Origin: an uncultured virus (IMG/VR IMGVR_UViG_2875292628_000003)
Taxonomy: Duplodnaviria > Heunggongvirae > Uroviricota > Caudoviricetes
DNA: 64,000 nt
Direction: 5' to 3' (one strand)
IMG/VR virus record: IMGVR_UViG_2875292628_000003
Below are positions 4,992 through 53,383 of the stretch, one piece after another; position 1 is the stretch's first letter, and every line of letters starts with the position of its first letter. The position numbers were made by a program, and so were the translations under genes. Below the pieces are notes generated by a model. The model saw nothing but the letters and a program-made list of their open reading frames with translations. It did not search any database and was not told the origin of the DNA.

Positions 4992-5022
4992 ATATCCCTC
5001 AACATAGGAACTTTACATTCCT

Positions 5023-5063: not shown

Positions 5064-5066
5064 GAT

Positions 5067-15300: not shown

Positions 15301-18300
15301 AAACCACCAGGTACAGTTGCATCATATTGTTGAATTTGCTGAGCTATAACCCCTTTATTTACATCAGCCTTGATAAAAGTATCTTCAACAAATTGAGCAT
15401 TTTGTTTAAGAGACGATCTAAATCCGCCCTTAAAATTTGGCGCTGAATTACCCCGGCTAATAAACATATTAGTTACAGTAAATGTTCCACCAGATGGAGC
15501 ATTATCAAACCGTAAACCCAATGGAATAGCTTCAAAAGCAGAGGCTTTTAAATCAGATGGGAAAATACCAGTAAGTTCTATTTCACCACTTGCAGCTACA
15601 ACAAACGAAGGCAACCCAACACTATAAGTTGCACCATGAAATTGAATACTACATGTAGCGCCAACTAATCCTGCAGTTGCTGTGTATTTGATTCTCGCAA
15701 CTATTGGATCACCCTTATCAATTGGAATTTCCTTGTGTTTATATTGCAGTTCCCAAACAGCTACAGTTCGGTTTGTACCAGTAGAAATACTTAAATTTTT
15801 AGTATCATCACCAAGTAAAATCCAGTTCTCTTCTGAGTAACGTAAAGTATCAAGTTGTGCTTTAAAAACTTTGATTTCCTCAGCAAATACTTCTTTCGCA
15901 TCAGATCTTGTAATTTTTTCTTGAAGAATTTGTGCGTGGTTTTCTAAAACCTTTTGTAAGTTTCCACTATTGTTTGCCAGACCAATCGGGATACCACTAA
16001 CTACTTGGACTGCAAGCATGATTTGCTTAGCCCCATTTGGTCCAGTATCTGGTGTTGCATGCAATTCTATACCACGACCTGAACCAATCCCCTTCTGACC
16101 AACTAAAATGTATGCATCCCGACCCGTTATTTGATCAAGTGTGAATGGATTGGCACCTAATGAAATTAGTGCATTCTTAACTGGTGCTAGGTTTACCCCA
16201 ATACTGTCGTAGTTTGTAACGATAACAAAGGTGTCATTTGGAATCGCAGCAATAGCGTTACTCATTGCCGTAGCATTTGCTACAGCTGCATAAGTATCAT
16301 ATCTAGTTGAAGAAGCAACAGAACCATCAGCTGCTAAAACATGTACTGAAAAACCACGAGCTGAAGCTACTGATTTGATTTCACCCTTTAAGTTTTTAAT
16401 CCCTGTGAAAAAGCCATTCCAGCCACATGAATAAACACGGTAATTGAAAACTTGACCAAGGTCCTGATTTAATTGTTTATAACTTGATTCCAAGTTATTA
16501 ATAGACTGTGTGGTGTTCTGTTGATTATCACTAATAGTTGAATTAATTTCCTGAAACTTACCATCTACAGCAGTTTTATTATTGTCTACAGTAGATTTTA
16601 AAGTCGCATAATTCTCTGCAAGTGAAGTAATCTTCTCACCGTTTTTTTGAACATCCGCTTTAGTACCCTCAATTGCAGAAGCATTAGCTTCAAGATCCTT
16701 AATTAGTTCACGAGGATTTTTTCTAAAACCAGTGGCTAACTCACCTTTTTCAAGTTGCACTTCTCTAATTAAAAAGTCAGGAGCAAAACCTACTTGCGAA
16801 TATAAAATTAAGTTAATATGCTGTAAATTAATAATATTTGTATCAAAGGTATAAGTACATAATGTTTCTTTATCAGTCGAAATGTTATTCCATGTAGTAC
16901 CAATTTGGTTGTTACTACCTGATGAATCTCGACGGTGTATAATTAATAAAATTTGAGTCTGTGCAGCTGTCAACGACATTGCTTTAAATGACAATGTGTA
17001 CTTCTGATTCATCTCTAAACCATCTGCCAATGTCAGAGTTTCAATAAACCCTTTAAAGTATGTAGTTGTATCAGTAGATTTAAAGTGCCCCCAAGTAGCA
17101 CCTTTTGAATCTTTATAAACTTCAAGTAGATTACCTGCCACAGCAGAATTTTGACGCCAATTTAAGGTGCCTAAAGGGCTTGAGAAATCACCATTTTTAA
17201 TAATATTATCACCACCACTAGTTGAAATAGCGGCTTTGATGATTTTACTTTCCTCTGCAATCGCTTGATTAGTCTCAGTTTTTGTATAACGAGTACTATC
17301 AAGAGTTGCTGAACTGTTAGTCCATAGATCACCAAATTTTTGACGAAATTTAGCTTCAAGGGTTTCAGTTGCAGAAGTTATTGCTTGAGCAGTATCTGCT
17401 TTAGAAGAGTAATCCTTAATTAGAGTTGAAGTACTTACCTTATCATTTAACGCTTTATTATTACCCTCAAAAACTTCTACCCAATGCACTGTAGTAGTGG
17501 CATTAGCATTTGCTGACGAATTTGGAAAACAAGCAAAATTAACAACCGTTGAGTCTGTTCTAGCAATTGTAGTTAAGGTAAATTCGAAAATGTCTTTACT
17601 AGCTGAAAAAATAGGCGCATCTGCATTAAATACATTAGCTCCGCCAATATATATACGCAAATTGGCTGCATTGTTCCCTCCATTATCAAAGGTAACTTTT
17701 GCTCTGACGGTAACAGTAATACCAGGTGCATTTAAACTTTTTGCTAAGGGATATGATATTTGTACATAACCACCCGTTTTGCTTTTTTCGACATTCCCCC
17801 CGACCACAATGTTGTCAAAAGCCTTTCCACCGATACTTGTTTTCAAAGCTTCGGTTGTAGTTGATATTGCGCTATCAACATCAGATTTAGTCATCCGGTC
17901 TGAAATTTGTTTAGCCTGTGCTGCCAAACCATTTACAGGATCATTAATTGTTGATTCTAAGTTTTGAGTTTTTTTAGCTAAAGCAGTACTTTCAGTAACA
18001 TACGTTTGTTTAAATTCATTTAAATTTGCTGATACTTTATCGAATGCTGCATTGAAGTCGTAAGGACTTGCAATCCAATTATCTGTAGTTATGAATTCCC
18101 CTTTAACCAATACGGCCCAGTAAACAGTACCTACAGAATTTTTGTCTGCTGTAGGTTTATTAATCATATAGAATTGAATTTCTCTACCTGTGCCTGCAGA
18201 ACTTTTTGTAAAAGTAACTTTATTAATTACTTTACCTGCACCTGCAGGGCAAGCTTGAACCCACTGACTTCCGCCACCAGCATATACAGTTAAATTAGAG

Positions 18301-21300
18301 TTTGTATCACCAGCACCTCGTGTATGCTCAGCACACCAAAGAAGTGTGTATTTTGCTCCTACTTCCCAGTCTTCCCCCACTTTATAGCGTAGATGAGGAT
18401 ATGAAACTCCATTGTAAGTTCCTACTACATTAGAGTTGATTAACAAATTCGTGCCAGCTGGTGCAGACTTGTTAAGATTTGCTGATAAGGTATTTGATTG
18501 TTCAGTAACTGCTTTAATCTGTCCAGCTTGTTCAGTTACTTTTGAATTTGTTGTTTCAAGTGCTTCACTTGAGGCTTTTTTCCCTACTTCAGTGTTAGTC
18601 AAAGTTAGATCATTTCTAAGCTTAGAAATATCTATACTTTGAGAAGATAAAGTATCACCATTCTTCTTTACTTCAGCTTGAGTGACTTTAATTGCTTCCG
18701 CATTGGCATTTAAAGAGCTTTGAGTATCACGTGGGCTTGGGCTCCATGCGGTAGCCTTATTGCCTGCTTCGATCTGTAATTTTTGAATCGTTGGAATTCG
18801 ACCAGAACCGTATGTTCCATAAAACTCAATTGTTGATTCGGTAGTACTTCCAGTGTGTACTTTAGGGGATACTGTAACTGCAAATCTTTGAAACTCATTT
18901 GCTTTTGTTACAGTAACTGAAGTTGTAAAGTAATGAGCAGATCCATTTGAAGAGTAAACTTGTACTGTTCCAGCAACGGGCACACTCACGTCAAAAGAAA
19001 TAGTAACCGGCTTATCTAAATTTTCGTCATAAAAAGCTTTGAGCTCTTTACTTCGTTCATACATTAAGTATTCACGACTAGTTGATGCTGTTGAGCTTCT
19101 TGGCGCTTCTGAATTAGCTACCGCATTAACCCCACCAATTTTAATATTATCTACTGCAGCTGTGATATCAGTAGCCACACGTCCCATGGCGCTATCAAGA
19201 TCACTCTTTGTAGCTGTTTTCAATAATGCTTGAGCGTTGCTCTGAATACCTGTTTCAGCATTCTGCATTCTTGATTCAAGCTTACTGGTCCGTTCTGCTT
19301 CAGCCTCAGTTCTATTAGTAGCAGTTTTGAATAAATCATTTGCGGTTGCTGTTGCATCATTTGCTGAAGCTAAAGAGTTGTTATCTTCAACGATAATGTA
19401 GTTAAGCTGACTTATACCTGGTTGAGCCGCATAGTTACCAATAAACATTGGGGCATAAAATTCAGCTTGTGCTGGGAAAGTACGCGGATTATCAATTGTT
19501 CCAAGTCCCGTAGCTGCACCTGTAGATTTTCCTTTCAGATAAAGTACAACTTCTTGCCATTCACCTAAATTTGGTTTAATTGCAGACAACAAGTAATTTG
19601 ATGAGCCCATGTCTGCAGCAAGATTATTTGTAGTTGTTACATACTTAGTTTGATCTGCTGTTTTACATGCAACACCTAAATAAATACTTCCATTTTCACC
19701 AGCAACACGACGGAAACGTGCACGCACCCGATAAAGCGTATCTGGATTAATTTTTACTAATTCTTTCCAATGAACCCAAGCTTCATCATTGCCAGCATTA
19801 TTACCAAGCTCAAGAATATAACCGCCAAATGCATCAGAATCTTGAAGTACTTTAGCTTCACCTGTAGCTCGCCAAGTTGACCAGTCATCAATTCCTTTTG
19901 CTGTTACTACTGCCCTCACACCAGTAGTCACTTGAGTTTGAGACTTGAGACTTAATAAATTTTGAGAAAGTGCTTCAGTTGCTTTTACCGCTGTTGTACC
20001 AGTTTGCTGCGCTTCGGCTGCATTATCGAAAGCTAGTTTAGCAATATCATCAGTAGTTTTAAGTGAAGAAGAAAGGCCAGATATTTTAGTGTTTGTATTA
20101 CTTTCTAAGGTAGATATACTTTTTTGGACATCTACAATCTGACCTTGTACCTTCAAATTTTCTTTCGAGATACTTGTATCAAGTTCTGTAAATTTCGTCG
20201 TGGTAGACTGTTCAAATTCAGCTAGTGACTCAGTAACTTCTAGAATATTTGAATTCGACTGACGATCTGCTTCTTCCAGAGCTGCTTTTGTTTGGTCGAT
20301 ACGTAATGATAAGGCTTTATCCCCATCAGAAACTGACTGAGTAATTGTCGCTAAATCAGACGTTGTTTTAGTTTTATTTGAATTATAGTCAGTCTTTAGT
20401 TCTTCAAGTTTTTTTGCTTCTGAAACAAGTTTCTCATCAACAAGTTTTACAGATGATTCAACCTTTTCGATATATGAGGCATTACCAGTAATTTGATCAC
20501 GCCATGCTTTAGGGATGGTGTCATTTAGTGCTGTAATGTCCCAGACCTCATAATCAGCAAGGATTACATCAACTGGGCTTGAAGTGCTTGGTAAAGGTGG
20601 ATTAGTGCCAGCTAATACACGAAAATGCCCATGAATAGCTGCTGGTGCATCATAGCCACACTGAACAACAGAGTAATAAACCTCAAACTTGCCAGTACCT
20701 TCTTTATTTCCAAGTACTCGTAAATAACCACCTGTACCTGTAGCATTGCCAACTGGTAATAAATAAGTCCCTTTTGGCATTTTAATAATTTGTTTTATTA
20801 AAAAGGTTTTATTAGGCGCAGCTACAAGTGTAGGAACAGTTGGATACCAACCACCACCTAAAGATGATGTAGATCTTAAAAGCATCTCATGGGTACTATT
20901 TACGGGGTTATCCGTAGATTTGGCTTGTCGAGTTAGTGTTGAGCCTGCTGGTACCACATAGGCACTTAATCCCCCATTACCAGAAAGAAACGTCGGATCA
21001 TCACGTAAAGGTTTACCAAGTGATTGCATCCGCGCTAACTCATTAGCACTTAATAAACTTGCATTTGTTGTGTCTAAACTGGCCTGTATTTGGTCAGTTT
21101 TTTCAGCCACAGATTTGGTAAGGTCAACTACAGTTCGTTCAACACTATTAATGGCAGCTTTGTTATCACCAATTTGAGATTGAGCAATACTAATTTGTTC
21201 AGTAATTGCTTTGTCTTGAGCTGCACGAGTTTTAGATTCTTCTGAAATTAAGGCATTTGATTTACCCAATTCGTTTTGCATTTCAGCAAACTTAAGCTCA

Positions 21301-22697
21301 AAACTTTGAGTTAAAGCCTCTTTATCATTTGCACGTGCTTCAGCTTCAGCTAGAAAACCAGAATCGACTTTCTTATCAAGCTCAACATACTGAGCTGCAA
21401 ATTCATCTACTTTTTTAACTGCAGCTTCAGTTTTGCTAACTATTGGTTCAATTTTTTGATTAATGAGGGTATTAGTTTCTTCACCTAATGCTAATTTAGC
21501 ATCATCAATCATTTGACCAGCTTTAACTAAGTTTTGATCAATATCTTGTTTTAAAGCGGCCTTTGTTTGATCAATAACAATAAGAGTGTCAGCTGCTTGC
21601 TTTTTACGGTCTAGAACTTCTTGGTCTGCAACTTTTTTCGCGTTTTCTGCGACCAAGCGAATTTCATCAGAATCACTTCTAACATCAGCAATAATAGAAT
21701 CCGTTTCTCTCTTGATGAAACCAATTTTGTCATCGAGTTCTTTCTCAGCGCGGATTGCCCGTTGTTGAGCATCAGCTACCAACTCTTCATTTGCCAGAAT
21801 TGATTGATCAATACGTTTATTGGCTTCATCCAAACGAATATTTGCATCATTTGCATGCTGTTCAACAATCAGTTTGGTATCGATAATTTCTTGATCAATA
21901 TAAGCCCGAATTTCATCAACTTTATTTTGTGCAATCTGACCTACTTCTTTTACTTGGTCATGTATTTTTTGCACCTCTTCATCAATGTGATTAATACCTT
22001 CTTCAAGCAATTTATAGGCATCAGAATCTTTAATATTATCAATTAACTCTTCTACTTCTTTTATTTTTTCATCAATTTCTTGGCTTATCTGATCTTTGTT
22101 TTCATCAATTTTTTCGCCTTGTTCTTTTAAGTCTTCTTTTAAACTCTCTAACTTATTAAGAGCGTCTTTAAATGCACCCTCAATAGCTTTAGGGTCAATA
22201 GGCACACCTGCAACCGTAAGTGTTGTGCCAACAGCCATACTGCCTGCAACAGAACTATTTCCTGCAACTGAAGTATTACCTACTACAGTACTATTTCCCG
22301 TTAATGTGCTATTACCAGTTTGTTGTGTATTAGCTTGCACATTCATCAACGGCGTTTTAATAGATACAGTTGTGCCAGAATCTACTTTTAAATTTTCTTT
22401 AGAGATAAATTCAATATTGTCTTGTCGAATACGGCGCACACCTACAATTGCGCCGTCTCCGTGACTGACATAACTATGGATTACTGGACGTTCTTCATTG
22501 CCGTTTTCAAAGAAGACATAGACGTCTTCCCCATCCACAATTTGAATTTCTGTATCTAAATCACTATCACCGACTGGATAGGCAAAAGTTGCAGTAATGC
22601 CTTCACTCGCGCCATCAGTTAAACCATGAATGTGTACTTGTGCAGTACGACCTTTTGCGTTGTAACTTAAAATCTTTGCACGTTTATAACCATTCAT
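12342..22697 (-). CDS. Giant baseplate spike/central tail fibre fusion (3451 aa)
   Basis: N-terminal gpV/gp5-like OB region plus GNSTLTGNSTVVGNTSVAG beta-helix; coiled coils alternating with carbohydrate-binding-like modules; ILEI/PANDER-like domain; gpJ-like C-terminus (GFQADRIFF...PFII...VLMNSDVFI). Confidence 0.75.
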   Translation of the reverse strand: MNGYKRAKILSYNAKGRTAQVHIHGLTDGASEGITATFAYPVGDSDLDTEIQIVDGEDVYVFFENGNEERPVIHSYVSHGDGAIVGVRRIRQDNIEFISKENLKVDSGTTVSIKTPLMNVQANTQQTGNSTLTGNSTVVGNTSVAGNSSVAGSMAVGTTLTVAGVPIDPKAIEGAFKDALNKLESLKEDLKEQGEKIDENKDQISQEIDEKIKEVEELIDNIKDSDAYKLLEEGINHIDEEVQKIHDQVKEVGQIAQNKVDEIRAYIDQEIIDTKLIVEQHANDANIRLDEANKRIDQSILANEELVADAQQRAIRAEKELDDKIGFIKRETDSIIADVRSDSDEIRLVAENAKKVADQEVLDRKKQAADTLIVIDQTKAALKQDIDQNLVKAGQMIDDAKLALGEETNTLINQKIEPIVSKTEAAVKKVDEFAAQYVELDKKVDSGFLAEAEARANDKEALTQSFELKFAEMQNELGKSNALISEESKTRAAQDKAITEQISIAQSQIGDNKAAINSVERTVVDLTKSVAEKTDQIQASLDTTNASLLSANELARMQSLGKPLRDDPTFLSGNGGLSAYVVPAGSTLTRQAKSTDNPVNSTHEMLLRSTSSLGGGWYPTVPTLVAAPNKTFLIKQIIKMPKGTYLLPVGNATGTGGYLRVLGNKEGTGKFEVYYSVVQCGYDAPAAIHGHFRVLAGTNPPLPSTSSPVDVILADYEVWDITALNDTIPKAWRDQITGNASYIEKVESSVKLVDEKLVSEAKKLEELKTDYNSNKTKTTSDLATITQSVSDGDKALSLRIDQTKAALEEADRQSNSNILEVTESLAEFEQSTTTKFTELDTSISKENLKVQGQIVDVQKSISTLESNTNTKISGLSSSLKTTDDIAKLAFDNAAEAQQTGTTAVKATEALSQNLLSLKSQTQVTTGVRAVVTAKGIDDWSTWRATGEAKVLQDSDAFGGYILELGNNAGNDEAWVHWKELVKINPDTLYRVRARFRRVAGENGSIYLGVACKTADQTKYVTTTNNLAADMGSSNYLLSAIKPNLGEWQEVVLYLKGKSTGAATGLGTIDNPRTFPAQAEFYAPMFIGNYAAQPGISQLNYIIVEDNNSLASANDATATANDLFKTATNRTEAEAERTSKLESRMQNAETGIQSNAQALLKTATKSDLDSAMGRVATDITAAVDNIKIGGVNAVANSEAPRSSTASTSREYLMYERSKELKAFYDENLDKPVTISFDVSVPVAGTVQVYSSNGSAHYFTTSVTVTKANEFQRFAVTVSPKVHTGSTTESTIEFYGTYGSGRIPTIQKLQIEAGNKATAWSPSPRDTQSSLNANAEAIKVTQAEVKKNGDTLSSQSIDISKLRNDLTLTNTEVGKKASSEALETTNSKVTEQAGQIKAVTEQSNTLSANLNKSAPAGTNLLINSNVVGTYNGVSYPHLRYKVGEDWEVGAKYTLLWCAEHTRGAGDTNSNLTVYAGGGSQWVQACPAGAGKVINKVTFTKSSAGTGREIQFYMINKPTADKNSVGTVYWAVLVKGEFITTDNWIASPYDFNAAFDKVSANLNEFKQTYVTESTALAKKTQNLESTINDPVNGLAAQAKQISDRMTKSDVDSAISTTTEALKTSIGGKAFDNIVVGGNVEKSKTGGYVQISYPLAKSLNAPGITVTVRAKVTFDNGGNNAANLRIYIGGANVFNADAPIFSASKDIFEFTLTTIARTDSTVVNFACFPNSSANANATTTVHWVEVFEGNNKALNDKVSTSTLIKDYSSKADTAQAITSATETLEAKFRQKFGDLWTNSSATLDSTRYTKTETNQAIAEESKIIKAAISTSGGDNIIKNGDFSSPLGTLNWRQNSAVAGNLLEVYKDSKGATWGHFKSTDTTTYFKGFIETLTLADGLEMNQKYTLSFKAMSLTAAQTQILLIIHRRDSSGSNNQIGTTWNNISTDKETLCTYTFDTNIINLQHINLILYSQVGFAPDFLIREVQLEKGELATGFRKNPRELIKDLEANASAIEGTKADVQKNGEKITSLAENYATLKSTVDNNKTAVDGKFQEINSTISDNQQNTTQSINNLESSYKQLNQDLGQVFNYRVYSCGWNGFFTGIKNLKGEIKSVASARGFSVHVLAADGSVASSTRYDTYAAVANATAMSNAIAAIPNDTFVIVTNYDSIGVNLAPVKNALISLGANPFTLDQITGRDAYILVGQKGIGSGRGIELHATPDTGPNGAKQIMLAVQVVSGIPIGLANNSGNLQKVLENHAQILQEKITRSDAKEVFAEEIKVFKAQLDTLRYSEENWILLGDDTKNLSISTGTNRTVAVWELQYKHKEIPIDKGDPIVARIKYTATAGLVGATCSIQFHGATYSVGLPSFVVAASGEIELTGIFPSDLKASAFEAIPLGLRFDNAPSGGTFTVTNMFISRGNSAPNFKGGFRSSLKQNAQFVEDTFIKADVNKGVIAQQIQQYDATVPGGLSSVVKTTKATADQTSKDLATLRNTEISQLQTSTNNLGSALENTTMLAMMITNGKLLQGDVNFKKGNNGVSVYNNAGNGNVTVTRVAKSADNPTTSTYEIEIKTIGAASPTWGGFVQLVYGRANAVFVIKYLIKLPVGYKLVNAGNAMGTGAIDRFIGNTEGTGKFETYIRMIKCGAVGSFSNSGHVYVAGGSTPTATAPLVWTLAQIEQYDVTDYASADPTLQDFVSSATDSISTLTNFKETWAAKLTEMSSKLDSKNGAYILNADITNTNVERAIAASSQKITSEYTNAMSVQPLSSGAGKIFVKPLTWRQAITTSGTLVIKTPITVGAYMTKVKISGYNYNNKEDNIFDLDLAFYAYTSTVPFYSNMTSRSFGITLDESNATTKGLALALDSNNKVCILITKKYAWSYPAITVESATITHTNPPDYFKDGWTAAIETDLSVYKSVTPFTVTSMMETTAGSQAKVDVPMAQLSDIAADNKLTPVEKKQAKLVWDTLYQTDASLRAEAVTYGISSAAYATAFSTLNTYLAALFANMNVTSTIDRNQFITNFANVHNARQALVRAISEKAKEIADTAKDIASTTKATLERDYMTSTKTNEAIASSTERMSALYSANGQKIMASVLETWQKDWLVKTPSGNKTELSLVADATCRGGYALRIGNNVGNDEAWLNWFTSLPIDDNKYYRVKYRFRRVSGTGVVYVGATCQNANKTKYIAQDNSEINDIGSSHYLVAGTAPALGTWITGTAYFKGRSAGASAGAGTLLSPKTFANKAAFFTPVFIGNYSGKAGEVDLDFIDIEDADNIADFENFKTTYTTDVGAYAGALQTLVSVYGQNAIKLKSQADLIDGVKGKYVMGMDNNGVFTGMSMVSEQTNGTVLSSIGFQADRIFFTTGSSSTKYMPFIIQDNQVLMNSDVFIKNLTAANFKAKSLTAELFNVDKLSAITGELGTLITYKDPSQPQKARMVISGTALKLYDDNNIERIYIGL

Positions 22698-42265: not shown

Positions 42266-45200
42266 TTACCAATTAGAATAATGACCGAATTCTGCAGAAA
42301 CATTACCGCCAACACTGGCGCCAATGCGCCATGAAAACTTTTTCGAAGGATCGACAGTAACTCCAGGTATAACTAATTGAGGTTTGTTGAATTGAAAATC
42401 ACCACCTTTTTCTGCTTGTACAAGTCCATTCCCTGTATATCCTGAAACTCCAAAAAGCGTAGCTTCTATTGGTCCAATTCCGGCACCCATTTCTAGTTTT
42501 GAATTTGTTCTAGCGATAGCGCCTGAACCACAATCTAATGCATGTTTAGAGGGTTTACCATTTGGGTCAAGACCTACCCCAGCACCAAGTCCAACACCTA
42601 CTTTTCCAAGAACTTCTAAGGTGCCGTTGTTATAACTAATTGATGCACCACCACCTACACCATAATAACCTTCAATACTTAAAGACCATAAACCATACGG
42701 GTCAATATAATTCACAGGATTATTACCTACATATGTATAGGTATTTACTCCACCAGCTAATCCAATTGGATCAGGTTGTGTATAACGACCTACTGTTCCA
42801 TCAAAATATCTATTCCAGTTATACCAAAGGCCAGATTCCACATCATAATATTGACCTGGTAAACCAATGTTAAATTGTCCAATACTGCTTTGAATCACAT
42901 TGCTGTCAAAACTGTTATTTTGAGATTTCCATACAACAGTCTTAGAAGCATTAGTTAAAACTTCTGGTCTTCCTAAATGATCATTATGTACAAAATTTAA
43001 TGTATTGTTACGGACCACACCAATTACCTGTCCATACAACCAAACATAAGCTGTACTGATATTTGTATCTGAAGTATTTGACTCACCTAATAATCTACCA
43101 TCGGGAGAGTAAATATAATTTACGTTACCAGCTCCACCAGTTTTTCTAGTTCGTAAATTAAATACATCATAGTCATAACTAGTACTGTTGCTTCCAGCCT
43201 TCACAGTTTTTAGGCGATTAAAGCCATCATAGCTGTAGTCTACAGTCCCGCCGTGACCAGTTTTTTTAATTAGATTGCCAAGCACATCATAGGTAAAGCC
43301 TTTTGCTTCTGTAGTTGTCGTACTAGCTAACCTATTTCCAATATTAGTTTGATAATTTGTAGTTAGATTTGTATTTCCTACCCGAGTACTTCGATTTGAA
43401 TTTTTATCAAAAGTCCAACTTTCTGTATATTGAGTAGAAGCAGCTTTAGTAAGTTGTCCTATAGCATCATAAGAATAAGTAGCTGATCGATTTACTTCCA
43501 GACTATTATCAACATTGCTTAGCAAGTTATTGGTATTATAGCTATGACTTAACTTTTGGATGGCCTCTGTATTAATACCAGTAATTCTATAATCTTTATC
43601 AAAACTAGTTGTACGTGTTAAACCATTCCCGTAAGTCCAACTTTTAATACCACCATAAGGTTCATAAGTAATATTTTTTACTACATCTTTATCAGCGCCT
43701 TGTATACGAACTTTAACAGTATTAATTCTGCTCAAAGTGTCATAACCATATGAAACTTTGTAGCTATCATTTGCAAAGCTTTCACTGATTAAGCGTCCAT
43801 AGTTATCATATGCCCAGTTAGTTTGATAATTTGTACCATTTATAACTCTGGTCTGAACAATCATTTGTCCAGCTTTGTTATACCCATATCCTGATGAACT
43901 AGTTCCATCCGATGTGCCACACAAACGCCCTTTTCCATTTGTACAATTATCATATACCCATGCATGCACTTGACTACCTGTTTGCGCTTTAGTTTGTCGT
44001 CCTAATGCATCGTAAGTATATGTGGTAACTATATTATTAGCACGTGTCAGCTGAATTACGTTTCCGTCGACATCATAACTATATTTTGTTAATCCTTTGT
44101 CTGGGCTTTGAGATGATAATAAGTTTCCAAAACCATCATAGGTATAACTTGTAGTATTACCTTTACCATCTTTTATAGACGTCAGATTACCATTAGCATC
44201 ATAGATTGATTGGGTCGTTGAACCATCTGGTCTTTTCACTTCTGTTAAATAGTTATTTGCATCATAAGTATATGTAGTGATTTTTCCAAAAGAGTCAGTT
44301 TCTTTGATTATATTTCCATTTCCATCATATTCATAAGTGAAGTTTTGCGCGTTATTCCCCTTATTTGCTGTCGTCCATCCAAGTTGATTATGCTCTTTCA
44401 TTTGACTAAAGCGAATATTAGAACCCTCTTTATAATCTACACGTAATAATTTTCCTAATTTAGAATAAGTAAAATATTGACCACTTAAGATCGTGTTACC
44501 TGTCCCGTTTGTTATACTCGCAACTGTACCGTTATCATTATAATTAATCGTTTCACGCATCCCGTTAGTTTCTGTTTGCGTAATTCCAAAAGCTCCATAT
44601 TGATACGTGGTTGTACGTATTTGGTCACTGGCTAGTGTTTCCTTTTTACTAATGACACGTCCACGTGCATCATAGCTCAACTCAATTACAAACCCATTTG
44701 GATCAGTAATTTTACCGACATTACCCAAACCATCATAATTAGAATAAGTCGTAATATGGCCTAAAGGATTTTTATATTGAATAAGATTCCCTATAGCATC
44801 ATAAGTATAAGTTGATGTTTTTTCATTAGTATTTATTGCAACATCTTTAAGCATACCATTGCTATGGAATGTATAACCATAACCTATTGTTTTACATGTA
44901 TTTGTTCCAACTTTACTGCAAGATTTAATACTTTTAATTCGATTTTTAGCAGTATCAGTTGAAGAATAATATGAATACGTGATGTCAGATGTCACGATAT
45001 TATTCTTAAGATTTTCGACTTTACTAATTAAATATGGTGAGTTAAGCCAAGTGTATTTGGTAAGTGATTTACTCGCAGGTGTACTTTTTTCTAACAACAA
45101 CCCATTTGCATCACGTCGATAAGTAGTTTCAACTCCATTCCAATCGATTTCAGAACTAACATATCCATTATTATCGTAGTTAGTTACAGCATTACTATTT

Positions 45201-46339
45201 GGACAATTATTTACACCACTACGTTCTATTTTAGTCAACTTATCTTTATTATCATTTGTATAAATATACTTAGAAACAGCACCTAAAGGATTAGTTACAA
45301 TAGTATAATTATTGCCATATTCTAATTTAAAAGTTTGCGTTCCATCACTGCGGCCACTTTGTATTGTTCTTTCACCATCGTAGATATAAGTTGAATAACG
45401 CTTTCCATCAATGGAAATTCCAGTAAGTTGATTCTCACTTGCTCCATTTTCTCCATAATGGAATGTTTTTTTTCCTAAATTATTTGGGTATACAATTTCT
45501 ATTAGACGTTGACCATTCGATTTCAATGTATAAACATTACCTGCTGGATCAGTTATCTCAGTTGTAGAATTACCCATGGGTTTTATTTTAATAGTTTTAC
45601 CATTCGTGTGGGTAATCGTAGTGATCCATGTCGCTGAATCTCTTGATTGAACCCATCCAATACCGTGTAAATTTTTTCTACTTTTTAAAGAACCACTATG
45701 CAGCAATGGTTGTGTACCAATGACGCTAACATCATATGTTTCAACGTCACCATTTGGTAAATAAATTGGATTTGAAACTTGATCATAACCTCGTAATTCC
45801 CTAACTAGAGAAAAGGAACCATCTGCCAGTTCTCGCCCCAACTTTACTTTATTTTGATAAATATAAACACCAGCCTCATTCATTGTTACTTCATAATTAT
45901 TTTTCCATCTTTTTCCAAAGGTTTTTATGGATAGATTAAAACCGATGTCATTTTCAATATTTCTATCTTTATCTTGTGAATAATAAATTTCAGAATAGTT
46001 TAACGGCATTTCCCAATTCGTTGTAAAAACAGCTTCTTCATGCAATTTCTCACCCGTGTTAATTCTTACTGGATTTGGAGTTTGGCAATCACTAGATTCA
46101 TCATTCTTAAAAAAACTAGCTGTTGGGTTCGAATTATAAAAAGGATGAATTCCTTTATGCATATCTTGATAAAAGATTTGTGAGGTTGAATTAATCTGGT
46201 TTATGTCCAATACAGGATCTGGCGTACCGTAGAATGTTAAGGGCGGTAAAGTACCAACATATATCGGTTCTACAGCTAATATCGAACTACTAACAATACT
46301 TGTAGTTACTAATATAGAAATAATTTTTTTCAAATGCAT
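42266..46339 (-). CDS. rhs: RHS/YD-repeat polymorphic toxin with Sec signal peptide
   Basis: YD repeats; PGQYYD.ESGLWYNWNRY...DPIGL...NPVNYIDPYGL core; 140-aa C-terminal extension from 42688. Confidence 0.9.
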   Translation of the reverse strand: MHLKKIISILVTTSIVSSSILAVEPIYVGTLPPLTFYGTPDPVLDINQINSTSQIFYQDMHKGIHPFYNSNPTASFFKNDESSDCQTPNPVRINTGEKLHEEAVFTTNWEMPLNYSEIYYSQDKDRNIENDIGFNLSIKTFGKRWKNNYEVTMNEAGVYIYQNKVKLGRELADGSFSLVRELRGYDQVSNPIYLPNGDVETYDVSVIGTQPLLHSGSLKSRKNLHGIGWVQSRDSATWITTITHTNGKTIKIKPMGNSTTEITDPAGNVYTLKSNGQRLIEIVYPNNLGKKTFHYGENGASENQLTGISIDGKRYSTYIYDGERTIQSGRSDGTQTFKLEYGNNYTIVTNPLGAVSKYIYTNDNKDKLTKIERSGVNNCPNSNAVTNYDNNGYVSSEIDWNGVETTYRRDANGLLLEKSTPASKSLTKYTWLNSPYLISKVENLKNNIVTSDITYSYYSSTDTAKNRIKSIKSCSKVGTNTCKTIGYGYTFHSNGMLKDVAINTNEKTSTYTYDAIGNLIQYKNPLGHITTYSNYDGLGNVGKITDPNGFVIELSYDARGRVISKKETLASDQIRTTTYQYGAFGITQTETNGMRETINYNDNGTVASITNGTGNTILSGQYFTYSKLGKLLRVDYKEGSNIRFSQMKEHNQLGWTTANKGNNAQNFTYEYDGNGNIIKETDSFGKITTYTYDANNYLTEVKRPDGSTTQSIYDANGNLTSIKDGKGNTTSYTYDGFGNLLSSQSPDKGLTKYSYDVDGNVIQLTRANNIVTTYTYDALGRQTKAQTGSQVHAWVYDNCTNGKGRLCGTSDGTSSSGYGYNKAGQMIVQTRVINGTNYQTNWAYDNYGRLISESFANDSYKVSYGYDTLSRINTVKVRIQGADKDVVKNITYEPYGGIKSWTYGNGLTRTTSFDKDYRITGINTEAIQKLSHSYNTNNLLSNVDNSLEVNRSATYSYDAIGQLTKAASTQYTESWTFDKNSNRSTRVGNTNLTTNYQTNIGNRLASTTTTEAKGFTYDVLGNLIKKTGHGGTVDYSYDGFNRLKTVKAGSNSTSYDYDVFNLRTRKTGGAGNVNYIYSPDGRLLGESNTSDTNISTAYVWLYGQVIGVVRNNTLNFVHNDHLGRPEVLTNASKTVVWKSQNNSFDSNVIQSSIGQFNIGLPGQYYDVESGLWYNWNRYFDGTVGRYTQPDPIGLAGGVNTYTYVGNNPVNYIDPYGLWSLSIEGYYGVGGGASISYNNGTLEVLGKVGVGLGAGVGLDPNGKPSKHALDCGSGAIARTNSKLEMGAGIGPIEATLFGVSGYTGNGLVQAEKGGDFQFNKPQLVIPGVTVDPSKKFSWRIGASVGGNVSAEFGHYSNW

Positions 46340-48574: not shown

Positions 48575-48893
48575 ATGTCTCACCTGTTACTGATTTACCC
48601 AATCGGTCTGCTACTTGGTTAAGATCTATATTCACATTCATGATGCTTAAATGAATATGAACCGTCTCAAATCCTTCGGTTTGTGAATACAGGGCTAATT
48701 GGTCAGAGTTAAGCTCAGATAATATTGGTAGATCCTTTTTCATCTTAATAAGAAAACTATCTGCCACCCTCGAGTCTAAAGGTGCCATTAGCAAATCATA
48801 AAGAGGTGCACCAAAGTCAGAACCATACTTCCCATTAACCGGATGATTAAGCCAGTACTCAACCATGTCTAAAATTGTTTTAGATGTGATCAT
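48555..48893 (-). CDS. Baseplate gpW/gp25-like protein
   Basis: WL..P.NG.YGSDFG..L.DLL.AP. Confidence 0.6.
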   Translation of the reverse strand: MITSKTILDMVEYWLNHPVNGKYGSDFGAPLYDLLMAPLDSRVADSFLIKMKKDLPILSELNSDQLALYSQTEGFETVHIHLSIMNVNIDLNQVADRLGKSVTGETYDINAS

Positions 48894-49249
48894 TAGGAAG
48901 TTGCTCTATTACTGAAAATCATCAAAAGCTTTACTAGTATTGCAGTGCCAATCTGATAAGTTGAAAAAATGGTGAAATAGATTATGAATATCCATAATGA
49001 AACGCTTAATGCATCAAAATATGAAGCAACGTTATAGATTCGCCAATCAACAAGAATAATAGTGATCAATACACATGCCATACTTATGAAATACATATAT
49101 CTGATTTCTTTAAATAAGAGGCTTATAGGTACATGACGGAATTGTTTAATATACGCAGCTTTATTCTTGCTATTCCATCCTGTAACAACGGAAAGATAAG
49201 CTAAAAATGCAAGAATTAAGACAATATCAATACCGATTTGAATTTGCAT
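48893..49249 (-). CDS. Three-TM membrane protein (holin-like candidate), 118 aa
   Basis: Start MQIQIG defined by late box and hairpin; three hydrophobic stretches. Confidence 0.55.
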   Translation of the reverse strand: MQIQIGIDIVLILAFLAYLSVVTGWNSKNKAAYIKQFRHVPISLLFKEIRYMYFISMACVLITIILVDWRIYNVASYFDALSVSLWIFIIYFTIFSTYQIGTAILVKLLMIFSNRATS

Positions 49250-49278
49250 AAAAAACACCCTTAATAAGAACTGTATTA

Positions 49279-49319
49279 AGGGTATTGCTTTTGTATATAT
49301 GTAAGCGTGAATGGTTCCA
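49279..49319 (-). promoter_or_regulatory. Late promoter box for membrane protein-baseplate operon
   Basis: TGGAACC-N28-TACCCT; perfect 10-bp hairpin 49257-49283. Confidence 0.75.
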
Positions 49320-49322
49320 TAT

Positions 49323-49351
49323 TTGAAAATAAGAAATGCATGGATTATTAT
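49323..49351 (+). promoter_or_regulatory. Sigma70 promoter for candidate sRNA
   Basis: TTGAAA-N17-TATTAT; predicted +1 near 49358. Confidence 0.65.
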
Positions 49352-49357
49352 ATATAC

Positions 49358-49450
49358 AAAGCCCGCTCCACTTTTGACACGAGAACGTATAGGGTCATAA
49401 GTGTAGGTTAGAAGATGTCGCAACCCATCTCTAACTACCGGGCTTTTTTT
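49358..49450 (+). ncRNA. Candidate ~90-nt structured RNA (three-way junction)
   Basis: Closing stem AAAGCCCG/CGGGCTTT, two internal hairpins, 3' T-tract, upstream promoter. Confidence 0.6.
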
Positions 49451-50390
49451 AATGCACTTCAAAAGCTGTAAGCAGCCATGCATTACTACCTTCTCGCTTA
49501 ATCAATGACGCTTCATGCGAATTAAATACAATATTTATTCTTGTAGATAAACCACGTTCTGTACGCCGTTGTGTACTACCTTGAGCGATTGTTTGCACAA
49601 TAGTATCCACAAGCATATGCACAACTTCATCATATGTCATGCCATCACTTTCCATACGGCGCTTGATAATATGCTTAATACCCTGTTTATCACTGCCATA
49701 CTCAAAATCCACCCAGCCTAAATCATTACGATACATAGCTCTATGCACTGTGGTTTTTTCCATAATGGCTTTGTTCATTGCAGCTTTACCACGTGTGATA
49801 TTTGCTGTAACTGATTTGATTGGACTCGCACTATCAAATTCAGGCTTTCCCAGTTCGGATTGACCAGCCTCCGAACTTATACCAAGTTGTTGCTTAGCAT
49901 GTTCAATTTGTTCTTTCAGCTGGTCACGGTGAGCTATTTGCTTAGCTAAATCCTCATCAAGCTTTTGCTCTTGTTCTTCGACTTCTTTCATTTTCTGATC
50001 TACAGAAGTACGGCGCGGCGGTAAGCTAACTTTTTCACGCTTATTTTGTTCTTGGATTTTAGATTGTGCTTCACGGATAAGTTTAGCAACACAACTTACG
50101 GCGTTTTCAAATGTTGGCTTATAGTCATCACTAAAATCGCCAGATAGAACAATTACTTTATCATTCAGTTCGGCCTTCACTACATCCGCTAATGCACGAA
50201 TATAAAGTGTAAGCGTAGCGCCACCTGAAAAGAAAAATGCAACTGGTAAAACGCTAACACCAGCAACGCGCTTAATTTTGCGAAATTCTGGTGTAACAAT
50301 CGTTTGGCCTGTTGCTTTTTCTAAAGCCGATTGGATCTTTTTAATGTATGGAGTAGTAGCTGTTATAGCTGCAAGATTAAGACTGCCCAT
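49449..50390 (-). CDS. Hdf/DarA-N-like domain fused to PBECR (barnase/EndoU/colicin/RelE-fold) domain
   Basis: N-part KIKRVAGVSVLP..F.FSGG...DVVKAELNDK; C-part AMYRNDLGWVDFEYG..QGIKHII.RR...WLLTAFE; start MGSLNL after GAGG. Confidence 0.65.
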   Translation of the reverse strand: MGSLNLAAITATTPYIKKIQSALEKATGQTIVTPEFRKIKRVAGVSVLPVAFFFSGGATLTLYIRALADVVKAELNDKVIVLSGDFSDDYKPTFENAVSCVAKLIREAQSKIQEQNKREKVSLPPRRTSVDQKMKEVEEQEQKLDEDLAKQIAHRDQLKEQIEHAKQQLGISSEAGQSELGKPEFDSASPIKSVTANITRGKAAMNKAIMEKTTVHRAMYRNDLGWVDFEYGSDKQGIKHIIKRRMESDGMTYDEVVHMLVDTIVQTIAQGSTQRRTERGLSTRINIVFNSHEASLIKREGSNAWLLTAFEVH

Positions 50391-50417
50391 GAAAAATAAC
50401 CTCATATTAATGAGGTT

Positions 50418-50458
50418 ATCTTGTAAGTAAATTTTTTCTAGAAATTACATAAGTTCCA
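50418..50458 (-). promoter_or_regulatory. Late promoter box for hdf/PBECR gene
   Basis: TGGAACT-N28-CAAGAT; perfect 10-bp hairpin 50396-50419 over GAGG. Confidence 0.75.
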
Positions 50459-50478
50459 TTAAATTTCATTTTGTTTAT

Positions 50479-50595
50479 AAATAAAAACCTGCATTTGCAG
50501 GCTTTTATTTTAAATTAATTAGAAGTTAATTTATTTAAAATAAAAACCTGCATTTGCAGGCTTTTATTTTAAATTAATTAGAAGTTAATTTATTT
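50479..50595. repeat. Tandem duplication (2 x 58 bp, period 59) containing a terminator hairpin
   Basis: AAATAAAAACCTGCATTTGCAGGCTTTTATTTTAAATTAATTAGAAGTTAATTTATTT at 50479 and 50538. Confidence 0.95.
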
Positions 50596-51281
50596 CGGAC
50601 GTTCGTTAAACTATGTTGAAACATTTGTAAACCTAATTCAGTAGAAATTTTGACAGGTTCACCATGGTGATATGTTTCAGTGTTAGCGTGATATGTGTTG
50701 CCATTTCCAACAAGATGATTTGTTTCAGCAATCTCTGTTTGCAACATTTGTATTTGATTATTAAGAGTTGTAGACATGATAGGCGCTTCCAAATTATGAA
50801 CTTCTTCTCGTTTAATACTGCAATATTTTACTTCCCCTGCAGTATATTGATCGTATTTAATAGCTTCTAGGACAACAGCTATCGCATTAGGACAATCATG
50901 AATAATATGCTGAGTATGAAAACTCCCCGATCCAATTACAGTAGGAACATTAGTAATGTTTTCTATTGTAAACTCAGTGTCATTTACCATTTTAGAAACT
51001 TTAAGGCAAGAACCACTTAAATAGATTAGTGCAATAAAATCACTATTTGTTTTTTCAAGTATAGATCTCGGAAGCTCAAATTGTGTTTTATTTTGTAAGA
51101 TAAAATCAATAAGGGCCTCGCTAAAATCTCTCATACAAAATAAACATCCAGCCATACCAAATACAATATCGCCCAAACGTTTCACTTTCCTAAAAGGAAT
51201 ATTTAGAGTAACTTCTGTACGATTTACTGTAAAGGCTATGTCGGAAGCCATGAAATGAGTATCATAAGCTGTTGTTGTCAT
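50574..51281 (-). CDS. NTN-hydrolase (HslV/proteasome beta-like) protein
   Basis: MTTTAYD...MASD, FGMAG, IGSGS, A...D.YTAG; RBS spacing favours MTTT start. Confidence 0.7.
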   Translation of the reverse strand: MTTTAYDTHFMASDIAFTVNRTEVTLNIPFRKVKRLGDIVFGMAGCLFCMRDFSEALIDFILQNKTQFELPRSILEKTNSDFIALIYLSGSCLKVSKMVNDTEFTIENITNVPTVIGSGSFHTQHIIHDCPNAIAVVLEAIKYDQYTAGEVKYCSIKREEVHNLEAPIMSTTLNNQIQMLQTEIAETNHLVGNGNTYHANTETYHHGEPVKISTELGLQMFQHSLTNVRNKLTSN

Positions 51282-51474
51282 TAACATAATCCTTAAAACG
51301 CGCGCGAATTATGCATTTATGAATAATATTTTTCAAGAACTATATGATCAATTACATTGGAAATATCAATAAAATTAAGAATTTTATATTTGTCAGTAAA
51401 CTTAAAAAGCCAGCTAATAGCTGGCTTTTTATTAGGGGAGTCCTATTTAGACATCTTTATATTTTGATAAGCCC

Positions 51475-52438: not shown

Positions 52439-53383
52439 TTAAAAATTTACATATTGTTCTTCTGTTAGATTACTTAATAAATTAAAAAAAGTAGGTCGAG
52501 TTTCCTTAGTTAATTTCTGTCTAGGAAATTCACTTAATATTTTGACTGCTTCCACAGGATCTAACTGTGAAGTAAATGGAACTGATAATTGAATAAATGA
52601 TGTTTTATCTGTTTCCAAAGCTGTATCCAGCACATCTTTTACTTCATTGTAGCGCGGCTTCCTTTGCGCGGTTAGGAAAAGTCCATCAAAAATAATATAA
52701 ATCTCGTTTAATCCTGGTAATTGGACTTTCGCAATTGCTCCCATGAGGGGCAAATTAGTTTCAGGCCCGTCATCTCTACTAAACCCATCAGTAGGTGTAC
52801 GATAAGTCGCAAATAAGATTACTTCTTGACAATTAGGTAGCTTCAAATAGTCGAGCAAATTAAGACAATTTCTCGTGGTATTACTTTCGTGATATCTGTG
52901 AGCAATTATTAAATCTTCATTATTGTAGAGCGAGGCAAGATAATTCGCATAGGGTAAATATCTTTGGCAAGATTTGGTTATGTAATCTGATCTAGAGGAG
53001 AAAAGATTTGAGTTATGTACTTTATCTTTTAGAAAGTCATCAATTTTTCGTGTTAAAGATATGGGAATTGTAACGTTAATCTTTTCAGTCTTTTCCGCAT
53101 AGATTGATGTATCAATTGTTATGACATGAAAAAAAACATCTTTATCACGTTTTTTAAATGTTACTGAATTAATTTCAGTCGGCTCAGGAATATCAAGACC
53201 TTGGTCACTTAGAAAATCAAAATACTCAAGCGTCTTCTCATATACCTTCCTAATCACCTCGTCATAACTGGAACCAGTAGCATTAATATTCGGTTTATCA
53301 AAAAGTGCAGCCTCATAAATATCTTTTTTAAAGAAAGACTTAGATTCTGTAATCTTTACAGCAACTGTATAGTTTTTCACCAA
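52439..53383 (-). CDS. hicB: HicB-like antitoxin with C-terminal extension
   Basis: ATGSSYDEV...LDIPEP, KINVTIP..L..KID...SRSDYI (RHH) then ~170 extra aa; no adjacent hicA. Confidence 0.7.
   Translation of the reverse strand: MVKNYTVAVKITESKSFFKKDIYEAALFDKPNINATGSSYDEVIRKVYEKTLEYFDFLSDQGLDIPEPTEINSVTFKKRDKDVFFHVITIDTSIYAEKTEKINVTIPISLTRKIDDFLKDKVHNSNLFSSRSDYITKSCQRYLPYANYLASLYNNEDLIIAHRYHESNTTRNCLNLLDYLKLPNCQEVILFATYRTPTDGFSRDDGPETNLPLMGAIAKVQLPGLNEIYIIFDGLFLTAQRKPRYNEVKDVLDTALETDKTSFIQLSVPFTSQLDPVEAVKILSEFPRQKLTKETRPTFFNLLSNLTEEQYVNF

Follow-up and report, generated by a model that had tools for sequence, protein, structure and literature searches.

A candidate small-RNA gene convergent with the predicted RNase domain PBECR1 of phage proteins, and its possible role as a neutraliser

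Results

The PBECR1 locus and its convergent RNA element

The window analysed here, a stretch of 64,000 nucleotides from an uncultured member of the Caudoviricetes (IMG/VR record IMGVR_UViG_2875292628_000003), contains a - strand gene for a 313-residue protein with a C-terminal PBECR1 domain and, facing its stop codon, a candidate small-RNA gene on the + strand. The features of the locus are:

51308..51336, - strand, promoter-like site TTGAAA-17-CATAAT, which fits the end of the high-depth X22 contig
50574..51287, - strand, upstream gene, PHROG match phrog_1040 'peptidase HslV family', without a Pfam match
49449..50390, - strand, gene for the Hdf/DarA-N-like + PBECR1 protein, 313 aa, phrog_6398 over the full length
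49458..49739, - strand, part coding for the PBECR1 domain (PF18809), a predicted BECR-fold RNase
49290..49845, no strand, cassette (C-terminal domain, RNA gene, promoter and spacer) defined by block replacement in related prophages
49323..49351, + strand, sigma-70-like promoter of the small RNA: TTGAAA 49323-49328, 17-nt spacer, TATTAT 49346-49351
49358..49446, + strand, small-RNA body of 89 nt folded as a three-way junction, delimited by folding, covariance model R1 and covariation
49358-49365 / 49439-49446, + strand, closing stem P1, 8 bp
49369-49378 / 49394-49403, + strand, hairpin P3 (originally hairpin A), 15-nt loop
49406-49417 / 49426-49436, + strand, hairpin P2 (originally hairpin B), 8-nt loop
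49444-49450, + strand, run of seven T directly 3' of P1, the intrinsic-terminator U-tract of the + RNA
49254..49286, - strand, second hairpin, carrying a T-run and immediately preceding the ATG (49249) of the next gene; most relatives have it outside the cassette

The two parts of the protein are readily told apart. Phrog_1620, corresponding to the Hdf/DarA-N-like part, covers residues 5-179, and PBECR1 matches residues 218-311 (E 1e-11; 45.7 bits against a curated cut-off of 27.6), in agreement with the PBECR-type domain that had been proposed for this C-terminal end. Residues H53 and R58 of PBECR1, invariant in alignments A1 and A6 of the family, are both present. The upstream gene 50574..51287 is apparently co-transcribed with the PBECR1 gene, and the site at 51308..51336 could, judging by its position, start this two-gene unit. 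Downstream, the next gene starts at 49249 and phrog_13717 covers only its residues 1-118, which leaves the RNA region non-coding. The 196-aa ORF 48893..49483, a CDS in the annotation of phage ABMM1, was considered and rejected: the PHROG profile spans its last 118 residues only, and since the T-run is 6, 7 or 8 nt long among relatives, its frame is broken by indels. ABMM1 is the only member of the isolated-phage collection with this domain, and the plasmid collection contributed five A. baumannii records. The 'two places' found in ABMM1 turned out to be inverted loop arms of the neighbouring hairpin and not a second element.

The promoter, the closing stem, the two hairpins and the T-run at the stop codon are all where the original prediction had placed them. 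Six nucleotides separate the end of the -10 hexamer TATTAT from the first paired base, and the T-run overlaps the stop codon (49449-49451) of the convergent gene. The + strand RNA folds into the predicted three-way junction at -30 kcal/mol (z = -3.46), which none of 200 shuffles equalled; the complementary strand also folds (z = -3.97). In window-type copies P1 together with the seven T residues has the stem and U-tract of an intrinsic terminator, and the - strand side of P1 has a T-rich stretch too. With a score of 10 out of 12, the promoter-like site at 49323 ties for the top among the 21 such sites between 46000 and 53000. However, shuffles predict 26.2 sites for this region, i.e. there is no excess over chance, and therefore the site by itself proves nothing. 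Promoter-like sites are frequent in the AT-rich DNA of this region. The window contains no second copy of the element beyond chance words. A single copy is found in one of 247 Acinetobacter species genomes, as in the window, unlike the distribution of dispersed repeats of the REP or MITE type.

That the element exceeds chance is shown by its relatives rather than by the window alone. Covariance model R1 matches 49353-49450 with 71.3 bits (E 1e-18). Among 64 related copies, representing 18 sequence variants, both promoter hexamers are invariant, whereas the spacer and the upstream bases vary. Position 49374, a T in the window, is A in all 17 other variants, giving a perfect 10-bp P3.

A conserved RNA family linked to PBECR1

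We found R1 matches in 61 of 62 PBECR1 loci taken from genome contigs of different species, the exception being locus L127. All matches at PBECR1 loci have the same orientation and begin where the domain match ends; likewise, all 86 R1 hits are oriented in one way relative to the mRNA. The phmmer search gave 357 hits, and proteins with PBECR1 are between 126 and about 5000 aa long. Most relatives carry the element in frame within giant polyvalent-protein genes, where the RNA gene runs opposite to some 33 linker codons that directly follow PBECR1; 68 of 84 hits fall inside open reading frames. Where PBECR1 is encoded by a stand-alone gene or forms the C-terminus, as in the window, the element is located just past the stop codon. 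The linkage is also seen in whole genomes. Among 151 Moraxellaceae genomes, the RNA is present in four and PBECR1 in four, with the two adjacent in three. Among 151 genomes from the family of G383, the genome carrying locus L084, the RNA occurs in 11 and PBECR1 in 10, and all 11 PBECR1 domain matches are followed by the RNA within about 12 nt. Two RNA copies lack PBECR1: one in G285 (L228, 44.7 bits) and another in G439 (L234, 84.6 bits), which follows an LPD3-domain protein. The RNA is single-copy in most loci and tandem in L105, L108, L131, L091, L145, L103 and L102.

No Rfam family accounts for the element. Release 15 gave no match for the whole window at the gathering score, nothing but a chance rRNA match for 49100-49600 at E<=10, and no match for four relatives (L130, L131, L134 and L136) at E<=1. 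In the part of the PBECR literature available to us no RNA partner is described for these domains, and titles and abstract openings of publications on polyvalent proteins, antisense RNA and phages mention no such RNA. The element belongs to a conserved RNA family outside Rfam, of which this literature gives no earlier description.

Covariation and the choice of strand

Covariation downstream of PBECR1 homologues had been suggested as a check of the structure, and the outcome is positive. In 27 diverse copies read on the antisense strand, 84.0% of cells are paired, compared with 32-42% when partners are slid, and covariation scores 0.786, where the slid controls reach 0.105-0.210. Cells changed on both sides number 254, a count that none of 500 shuffles matched. 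The sense strand gives 78.9% paired cells and a score of 0.680. The 63 close IMG/VR copies (at least 93.7% identity) are uninformative for covariation. There are 13 invariant columns, located in the junction strands and in the P3 loop, and they are retained in copies past the stop codon. Translated copies use one frame in 38 of 38 cases and have a conserved linker peptide, whereas untranslated copies are found in frames 1, 0 and 2 in six, three and three cases, respectively. Judged by these compensatory changes, the fold is real.

Several observations help to decide which strand carries it. In the stems of 77 unique copies, sense A·C appositions outnumber sense G·U ones by 156 to 38, where shuffles predict 305 and 188. 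Likewise, two P1 positions that vary among window-type copies produce G·U when read from the + strand and A·C when read from the - strand. In 58 of 75 copies (16% in shuffles) the end of the best sigma-70-like site is 2-9 nt upstream of P1, and in 29 of 75 (2% in shuffles) it is exactly 5 nt upstream, so that the antisense promoter, conserved in position as had been proposed, is a property of the family; in untranslated copies it approaches consensus (TTGACA, 16-17 nt, TAnnnT). Finally, a T-rich tract, defined as at least five T in the 8 nt after P1, is present on the antisense strand of 24 of 75 members and on the sense strand of four. Because of the G·U versus A·C asymmetry, the promoter position and the T-rich tracts, the antisense strand, corresponding to the + strand of the window, is favoured, and an RNA gene antisense to the PBECR1 gene is, on sequence evidence, very probable. 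Most family members have no clear terminator after P1; in many, transcription of the antisense RNA may continue into the part that encodes the domain, which would suit a base-pairing mechanism.

A swappable cassette and its transcription

In related prophages, the PBECR1 domain and the RNA are replaced together by other C-terminal domains with small ORFs. The PBECR1 cassette consists of the domain and the RNA alone, while alternative cassettes combine another domain with a small ORF; Pfam searches with the alternative domains, their small ORFs and the HslV-like gene returned no match. The joints of the cassette lie at 49845 and 49284-49309, away from the stems, and in L066-L075 homology picks up again at 49284-49290 or at 49249. 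In L073, a 519-bp block of 99.4% identity (49827->49309) is present in another context; it comprises a stand-alone PBECR1 gene together with the RNA and its promoter. The PBECR1 domain and the RNA therefore travel as one module.

The RNA-seq contigs carry no strand information. In X22, a contig spans from about 51240 to 49380, which marks an abundant RNA end inside the P3 loop, bordering on the invariant motif there, and not at 49358. Coverage, which stands at a contig depth of 978 before this point, stops here, with 49141-49379 uncovered by any contig, and then resumes at 13-15. Because of this gap, the full-length + strand RNA is not abundant in X22. Contigs of X23 and X9 run through the element. 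The raw-read run X24 placed no reads and has no bearing on the question. The original prediction held the protein to be late-expressed; the contigs instead suggest a separate, strongly covered two-gene unit.

Discussion

Comparison with known systems

Type III toxin-antitoxin systems (ToxIN, CptIN, TenpIN) consist of an endoribonuclease and an adjacent small structured RNA that are inherited together. There, the RNA is encoded as direct repeats that precede the toxin on its strand, in one operon behind a terminator, and the toxin is not known to have the BECR fold. The PBECR1 locus resembles them in combining a predicted RNase with an adjacent structured RNA, tandem in some members and presumed to check the RNase. 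It differs in that the RNA is downstream, antisense, equipped with its own promoter, mostly single-copy and folded into a three-way junction, and in that the 'toxin' is usually one domain within a protein of 1000-5000 aa. The toxins of type I systems are small membrane peptides, and their antisense RNAs are not known to be deeply conserved, in structure or sequence, across bacterial classes. What the locus has in common with such systems (txpA/RatA, bsrG/SR4, par of pAD1) and with lambda OOP opposite cII is a small RNA, read convergently at the 3' end of a phage or toxin gene from a promoter of its own and with a terminator of its own. However, the partner here is a domain of about 100 aa instead of a small hydrophobic peptide, and the RNA need not overlap the coding part, as it does not in the window. 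The RNA would be complementary to the 3' untranslated part of the PBECR1 mRNA if that mRNA spans the element; the X22 contig, whose strand is not given, reaches 49380. Intrinsic (rho-independent) terminators share with the element a GC-containing stem followed by a U-tract on the + strand, but P1 encloses two more conserved helices and invariant loops, and the family is located mostly inside ORFs. In polymorphic toxin/immunity cassettes a C-terminal effector domain is swapped along with its neighbour in a similar way, but the second component here is an RNA gene rather than an immunity protein. The available part of Iyer 2017 (PMC5512222), which deals with polyvalent proteins, mentions no RNA partner of PBECR domains.

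What the RNA may do

Iyer 2017 (PMC5512222), in the portion considered here, treats PBECR1 as a predicted RNase found in polyvalent proteins of phages and in those of the DarA type, proteins presumed to be delivered together with the DNA. The same portion presents PBECR domains as predicted RNases widespread in polyvalent proteins of phages and plasmids. Based on our observations, the small RNA is probably tied to PBECR1 in function, and its most likely role is that of a dedicated neutraliser or regulator of the predicted RNase. Neutralisation would most likely proceed through direct binding, a reading which we hold tentatively, at somewhat below even chances, and by analogy with known systems. 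The + strand RNA would be transcribed from its own sigma-70 promoter, starting at about 49358 with P1 and ending at P1 and the U7 tract. Once folded, it would bind the PBECR1 domain, acting like an immunity factor or a type III antitoxin. Lysogens or producer cells would synthesise it continuously, whereas the protein, on delivery into a fresh host, would meet no RNA and be active.

The same linkage might have a different basis. As for a type I antitoxin or lambda OOP, the + RNA might pair with the PBECR1 mRNA; the duplex would then be cut (e.g. by RNase III) or translation downstream blocked, the leaky RNase or giant protein would be silenced, and the mirrored hairpins could kiss loop to loop. 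The RNA is indeed exactly opposite the mRNA in 86 of 86 hits, both strands fold, the scarcity of clear terminators may let the RNA reach the domain-coding part, and the X22 end at 49380, with its collapse of coverage, lies 22 nt inside the would-be duplex. Pairing, however, does not require sequence conservation, whereas the junction and loop bases do not vary even between distant taxa, untranslated copies included. In addition, the G·U excess indicates that the antisense fold itself is selected, and the window RNA stops at the stop codon, overlapping the 3' untranslated part alone. We therefore consider such cis-antisense control unlikely, though still worth serious consideration. The conserved unpaired bases and the linkage would also fit a positive partner of the predicted RNase, i.e. 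a cofactor, guide, processed substrate or component of a packaged RNP, and the 49380 end, which adjoins the invariant motif of the loop, could then be a processing cut. Nothing else points to a positive role, and the RNA copies without PBECR1 suit an antidote better, which makes this reading improbable. Those two copies, together with the promoter and the conserved single-stranded motifs, might instead speak for a trans-acting sRNA directed against targets of the host or a rival phage (e.g. an anti-defence decoy), hitch-hiking beside PBECR1 without touching the enzyme. Without a functional tie to the domain, however, one would hardly expect the same position in 61 of 62 loci from very different hosts, and the chances of this reading are low as well.

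Two further possibilities would deny the RNA a role of its own. The element might do no more than terminate transcription of the PBECR1 operon, possibly in both directions, or stabilise its 3' end, given the T-run after P1 on the + strand, the T-rich stretch on the - strand and the collapse of X22 coverage across it. Yet termination inside ORFs would truncate giant proteins, X23 and X9 contigs pass through the element, and three helices, invariant loops and an upstream antisense promoter would all be superfluous. The terminator-only reading, to which we assign very little probability, is largely refuted by conservation inside ORFs; the initial impression that the structure is more than a terminator needs has thus been borne out. 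Equally far-fetched is a DNA-level element, such as a folded single strand or cruciform used in cassette shuffling, or a by-product of the conserved linker peptide, although cassette boundaries do lie near the element and translated copies do keep one frame and a conserved peptide. A peptide cannot yield compensatory base changes or conservation past stop codons in three frames, there is no linked recombinase, the cassette joints do not coincide with the stems, and both the G·U bias and the promoter argue for an RNA. The element had also been likened to a tRNA and its loops to T-loops. This likeness is not supported: ARAGORN found no tRNA or tmRNA gene in the window, Rfam gave no match, and the consensus fold is built from three helices where a cloverleaf has four, its loops measuring 15 and 8 nt.

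Overall, a convergent small-RNA gene that is the module partner and putative neutraliser of the predicted RNase is the best explanation available, although it falls a little short of an even bet. A more elaborate version, which we regard as rather unlikely, would be RNA immunity at the level of a single domain inside a coding sequence: domain and RNA would form an inseparable module, the antisense RNA of the linker, transcribed from its own promoter within the giant ORF, would directly mask the predicted RNase, and the orphan copies would guard lysogens against RNases that rival phages inject.

The presence of a conserved antisense RNA gene beside nearly every PBECR1 domain offers a testable handle on how injected predicted RNases stay harmless in the producer. 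It is also a candidate family to be added beyond those in Rfam. RNA genes that lie antisense within protein-coding sequence are rare, and in this one conservation extends to the frame of the peptide as well as to the fold of the RNA. If the RNA is indeed an antidote, RNA-antitoxin biology would come to include the BECR fold and individual domains of multidomain effectors, and the orphan copies would suggest a route to superinfection immunity.

The element and its gene

The window belongs to an Acinetobacter myophage or prophage, with 48800-50500 being 96% identical to phage vB_AbaM_ABMM1, and nearly all of its genes lie on the minus strand. The gene convergent with the element has the following composition:

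49449..50390, minus strand: Hdf-PBECR1 gene, product of 313 aa
residues 5-179 of the 313-aa protein: Hdf/DarA-N-like N-terminal part (phrog_1620 match)
residues 218-311 of the 313-aa protein: C-terminal PBECR1 domain (PF18809, E 1e-11)

Because phrog_13717 covers 118 aa, we place the true start of the next gene at 49249, and the spacer between this start and the 313-aa gene is 199 nt. The parts of the structured RNA described in the original prediction are all found in the sequence: the promoter-like TTGAAA-17-TATTAT (49323-49351), the closing stem (49358-65 / 49439-46), both hairpins and the T7 run, which overlaps the stop codon of the 313-aa gene. The computed fold of the + strand RNA agrees with the proposed three-way junction (z = -3.46), and its complement gives an equally good fold (z = -3.97). 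The Rfam search suggested at that stage returned no matching family anywhere in the window; a tRNA scan of the window found no tRNA, and there is no second copy of the element elsewhere in it.

Several other features of the region are worth recording. On the minus strand, a 13-bp hairpin with a T-run (49254-49286) runs almost up to the start codon of the next gene (ATG at 49249). Its 3' arm contains the sole Shine-Dalgarno-like bases there, and in six related copies (u4 and u14 variants) the 7-nt loop between the arms has flipped, a small inversion. A 59-bp tandem duplication (50478-50538) lies upstream of the PBECR1 gene and bears a pair of identical terminator-like hairpins, one at 50488 and the other at 50547. 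Farther away, the window encodes a 1357-aa RHS-repeat protein among the tail genes (42266-46339), and a HicB-like antitoxin domain is present in a 314-aa protein (52439-53383).

Close relatives and a swappable cassette

Relatives of the protein are encoded at 74 IMG/VR loci; counting ABMM1 as well, the element is present at 93.7% identity or higher in 63 of 75 loci and absent in 12. The element hardly varies across 64 copies, which comprise 18 distinct sequences; both promoter hexamers are unchanged, and the spacer around the promoter is variable. Two closing-stem polymorphisms give G·U when read on the + strand and A·C when read on the minus strand, and where the window has T49374 each of the 17 other variants has A, resulting in a perfect 10-bp hairpin. 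The T-run is 6, 7 or 8 nt long, so that the 196-aa ORF placed across the element in the ABMM1 annotation can be ruled out. That record (OQ471969.1) places this CDS at 3654-4244 and labels the Hdf-PBECR1 protein (4210-5151) a 'tetratricopeptide repeat protein', both in disagreement with profile results.

At loci L066-L075 the N-terminal part is retained at ~82% identity, and a different, longer block, from 49845 to 49284-49249, substitutes the domain, element and spacer together. The replacing blocks, in the slot that corresponds to window 49290-49845, code for different C-terminal domains followed by small ORFs (45-74 aa), none of which is named by Pfam; L070 has a truncated version. At L073, the element, the promoter-like site and a PBECR1 gene that stands alone (126 aa) lie on a 519-bp block (49827->49309, 99.4% identity) placed in another context. 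A dispersed repeat was rejected, the element occurring in one of 247 Acinetobacter species genomes, in one copy.

Conservation of the fold and linkage to PBECR1

A phmmer search with the PBECR1 domain against 1.8 billion representatives yielded 357 proteins at E <= 1e-3, and in most of the best 150 of these the domain is internal to a protein of 1000-5000 aa. Scanning one genome per species gave 62 PBECR1 loci; in 41 the frame is open to the end of the available DNA, and in only seven does the gene stop within 81 nt of the domain. A homologous element lies right after the stop in four of the seven (L130, L131, L134 and L136, with 32-36% protein identity to the window domain), and a motif search showed that the element immediately follows the domain also where the ORF runs on. 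On the gene strand its consensus is, in order:

8-bp closing stem P1, short junction, 9-bp P2 with an 8-nt loop
junction with invariant CTAC, 9-bp P3 with a 15-nt loop bearing invariant bases, junction GGAGC

Our alignment comprises 27 instances out of 33 distinct ones, leaving aside six near-identical window-type variants. Pairing on the gene strand amounts to 78.9% of cells compared with 33-40% for slid partners, and covariation scores 0.680 (slid partners, 0.11-0.17). The covariation among homologues that had been put forward as a check is therefore strong, with double changes in 24 of 26 pairs, and the fold of the element is well supported by computation.

A covariance model of the element (R1) was searched over 93 of ~224 sources, with near-identical window-type loci omitted. 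All 86 matches at E <= 1 are in the orientation of the PBECR1 gene, and nearly all either start where the domain match ends or follow such a copy in tandem; the window match (49353-49450) scores 71.3 bits. R1 matches in 61 of the 62 species loci. The sole exception, L127 in genome G382, has a divergent look-alike after the stop by eye, and its domain retains the invariant His and Arg. Where the frame is known, 68 of 84 matches (not dereplicated) are inside the ORF, 10 follow the stop and 6 contain it. Among 151 Moraxellaceae genomes, the RNA is found in four and PBECR1 in four, with both, adjacent, in three; among 151 genomes of the family of G383 (the genome of L084, recorded as Gallibacterium), the corresponding numbers are 11, 10 and 10, and the RNA lies within about 12 nt downstream of 11 of 11 domain matches.

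Seven loci have second, tandem copies (L105, L108, L131, L091, L145, L103 and L102). Inside ORFs the tandem spacing is 96-97 nt, giving a 32-aa peptide repeat; in the untranslated L131 it is 132 nt, each copy having its own promoter-like site. Two copies lack PBECR1: a strong one (84.6 bits; G439/L234, 978-1077, minus strand) right after a 247-aa LPD3-domain protein, and a weak divergent one (44.7 bits; G285/L228, 1501-1600) with a different P3 loop, which follows an unrelated 230-aa ORF. Both the linkage of the RNA to PBECR1 and its fixed orientation are well supported by computation. A 3451-aa ORF of the window (12342-22697) contains no R1 match.

Strand, promoter and transcripts

Across 77 unique copies aligned to the model, gene-strand A·C mismatches in the stems outnumber G·U pairs 156 to 38 (shuffled partners, 305 to 188), and 86.2% of cells pair antisense versus 80.2% sense. 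In the 27-sequence set the A·C and G·U counts are 50 and 14; its reverse complement is 84.0% paired with a covariation score of 0.786, and P3 pairing rises from 86.0% to 91.3%. Since R1 was built on the sense strand, model bias works against this result, and the antisense-strand bias of the fold is well supported by computation.

Promoters were sought in the 70 nt that precede P1 when the DNA is read antisense, using 71 R1 matches and omitting 15 duplicate, truncated or weakest ones. The best sigma-70-like site scores 12.8 on our own scale versus 10.1-10.6 in three controls (the same DNA read sense, shuffles and DNA elsewhere). A conserved antisense promoter had been put forward as a further check, and the -10 box ends 2-9 nt before P1 in 58 of 75 unique copies (shuffles, 16%) and exactly 5 nt before it in 29 (shuffles, 2%). 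Untranslated copies come near the consensus (TTGACA-16-TAGAAT in L130, TTGACA-16-TAAATT in L139), and GC-rich translated copies retain TTGCCA-17-GATCAT-like sites. First copies in tight tandems have no promoter-like site of their own, which fits transcription of the whole tandem as a single unit. The positioned promoter-like site is well supported by computation.

Twenty RNA-labelled sequencing runs contain at least half of the sampled words of 48900-50400, as contigs only. Four runs were compared with the region, of which the single raw-read run (X24) gave 0 reads and so has no bearing either way. In run X22, the PBECR1 gene and the gene upstream of it are both on a contig of mean depth 978, which extends from about 51240 to 49380 and ends in letters that we take to be Illumina adapter; no contig covers 49141-49379, and downstream contigs have a depth of 13-15. 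Contigs of X23 (the same sample) and X9 continue through the element. These data suggest a two-gene unit (HslV-like and PBECR1) that is expressed separately and strongly, although contigs are blind to strand, level and true ends. Subject to the same blindness to true ends, a sharp RNA end in the P3 loop beside the invariant loop motif is suggested, and we regard it as a lead. The contigs of the three runs neither show nor exclude the + strand RNA. A promoter-like site (51336-51308) is found near the upstream end of the two-gene unit, and the X22 and X23 contigs show one copy of the 59-bp duplication (the joint skips 59).

Proposed function of the RNA

Among systems familiar to us, those most similar to the element in layout are convergent type I antitoxins and the lambda OOP RNA; the structure of the element is conserved far too deeply compared with these RNAs, and PBECR1, unlike the type I partner, is not a small peptide. 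The main rival to the reading we prefer, plain cis-antisense control of the PBECR1 gene, seems rather unlikely to us. The remaining rivals are lesser ones. One is a mere terminator. T-rich tracts (at least 5 T among 8 nt) come after P1 in 24 of the 75 copies antisense versus 4 of 75 sense, so that a clear terminator like the T7 run of the window is not general. The pattern might also be an artefact at the DNA or peptide level: the 38 translated copies with a GGAGC motif that could be located all share one frame, and their linker peptide is visible in the protein alignment. The 12 untranslated copies nevertheless occupy frames 1, 0 and 2 in six, three and three cases, so that the conserved bases are kept at the nucleic-acid level. 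Finally, the RNA might serve the RNase as a positive cofactor or substrate, or act in trans as a decoy.

In type III toxin-antitoxin systems RNA repeats lie upstream of the toxin gene, on the same strand and in one operon. The RNA and PBECR1 do not share this defining layout, but in their proposed working they would be most similar to type III. The portions of Iyer 2017 (PMC5512222) and of the 2026 BECR preprint available to us name no RNA partner for PBECR domains.

With somewhat less than even confidence, we favour the RNA as a dedicated neutraliser of the predicted RNase, acting by direct binding. Its unpaired bases do not vary between distant hosts, untranslated copies included, compensation preserves the three-helix shape, and tandem and orphan copies exist; moreover, RNA and domain form a cassette where other cassettes carry a small ORF. 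A further reason is the orientation, since only from an antisense position can an RNA gene with termination of its own be embedded in an ORF while the mRNA of that ORF continues.
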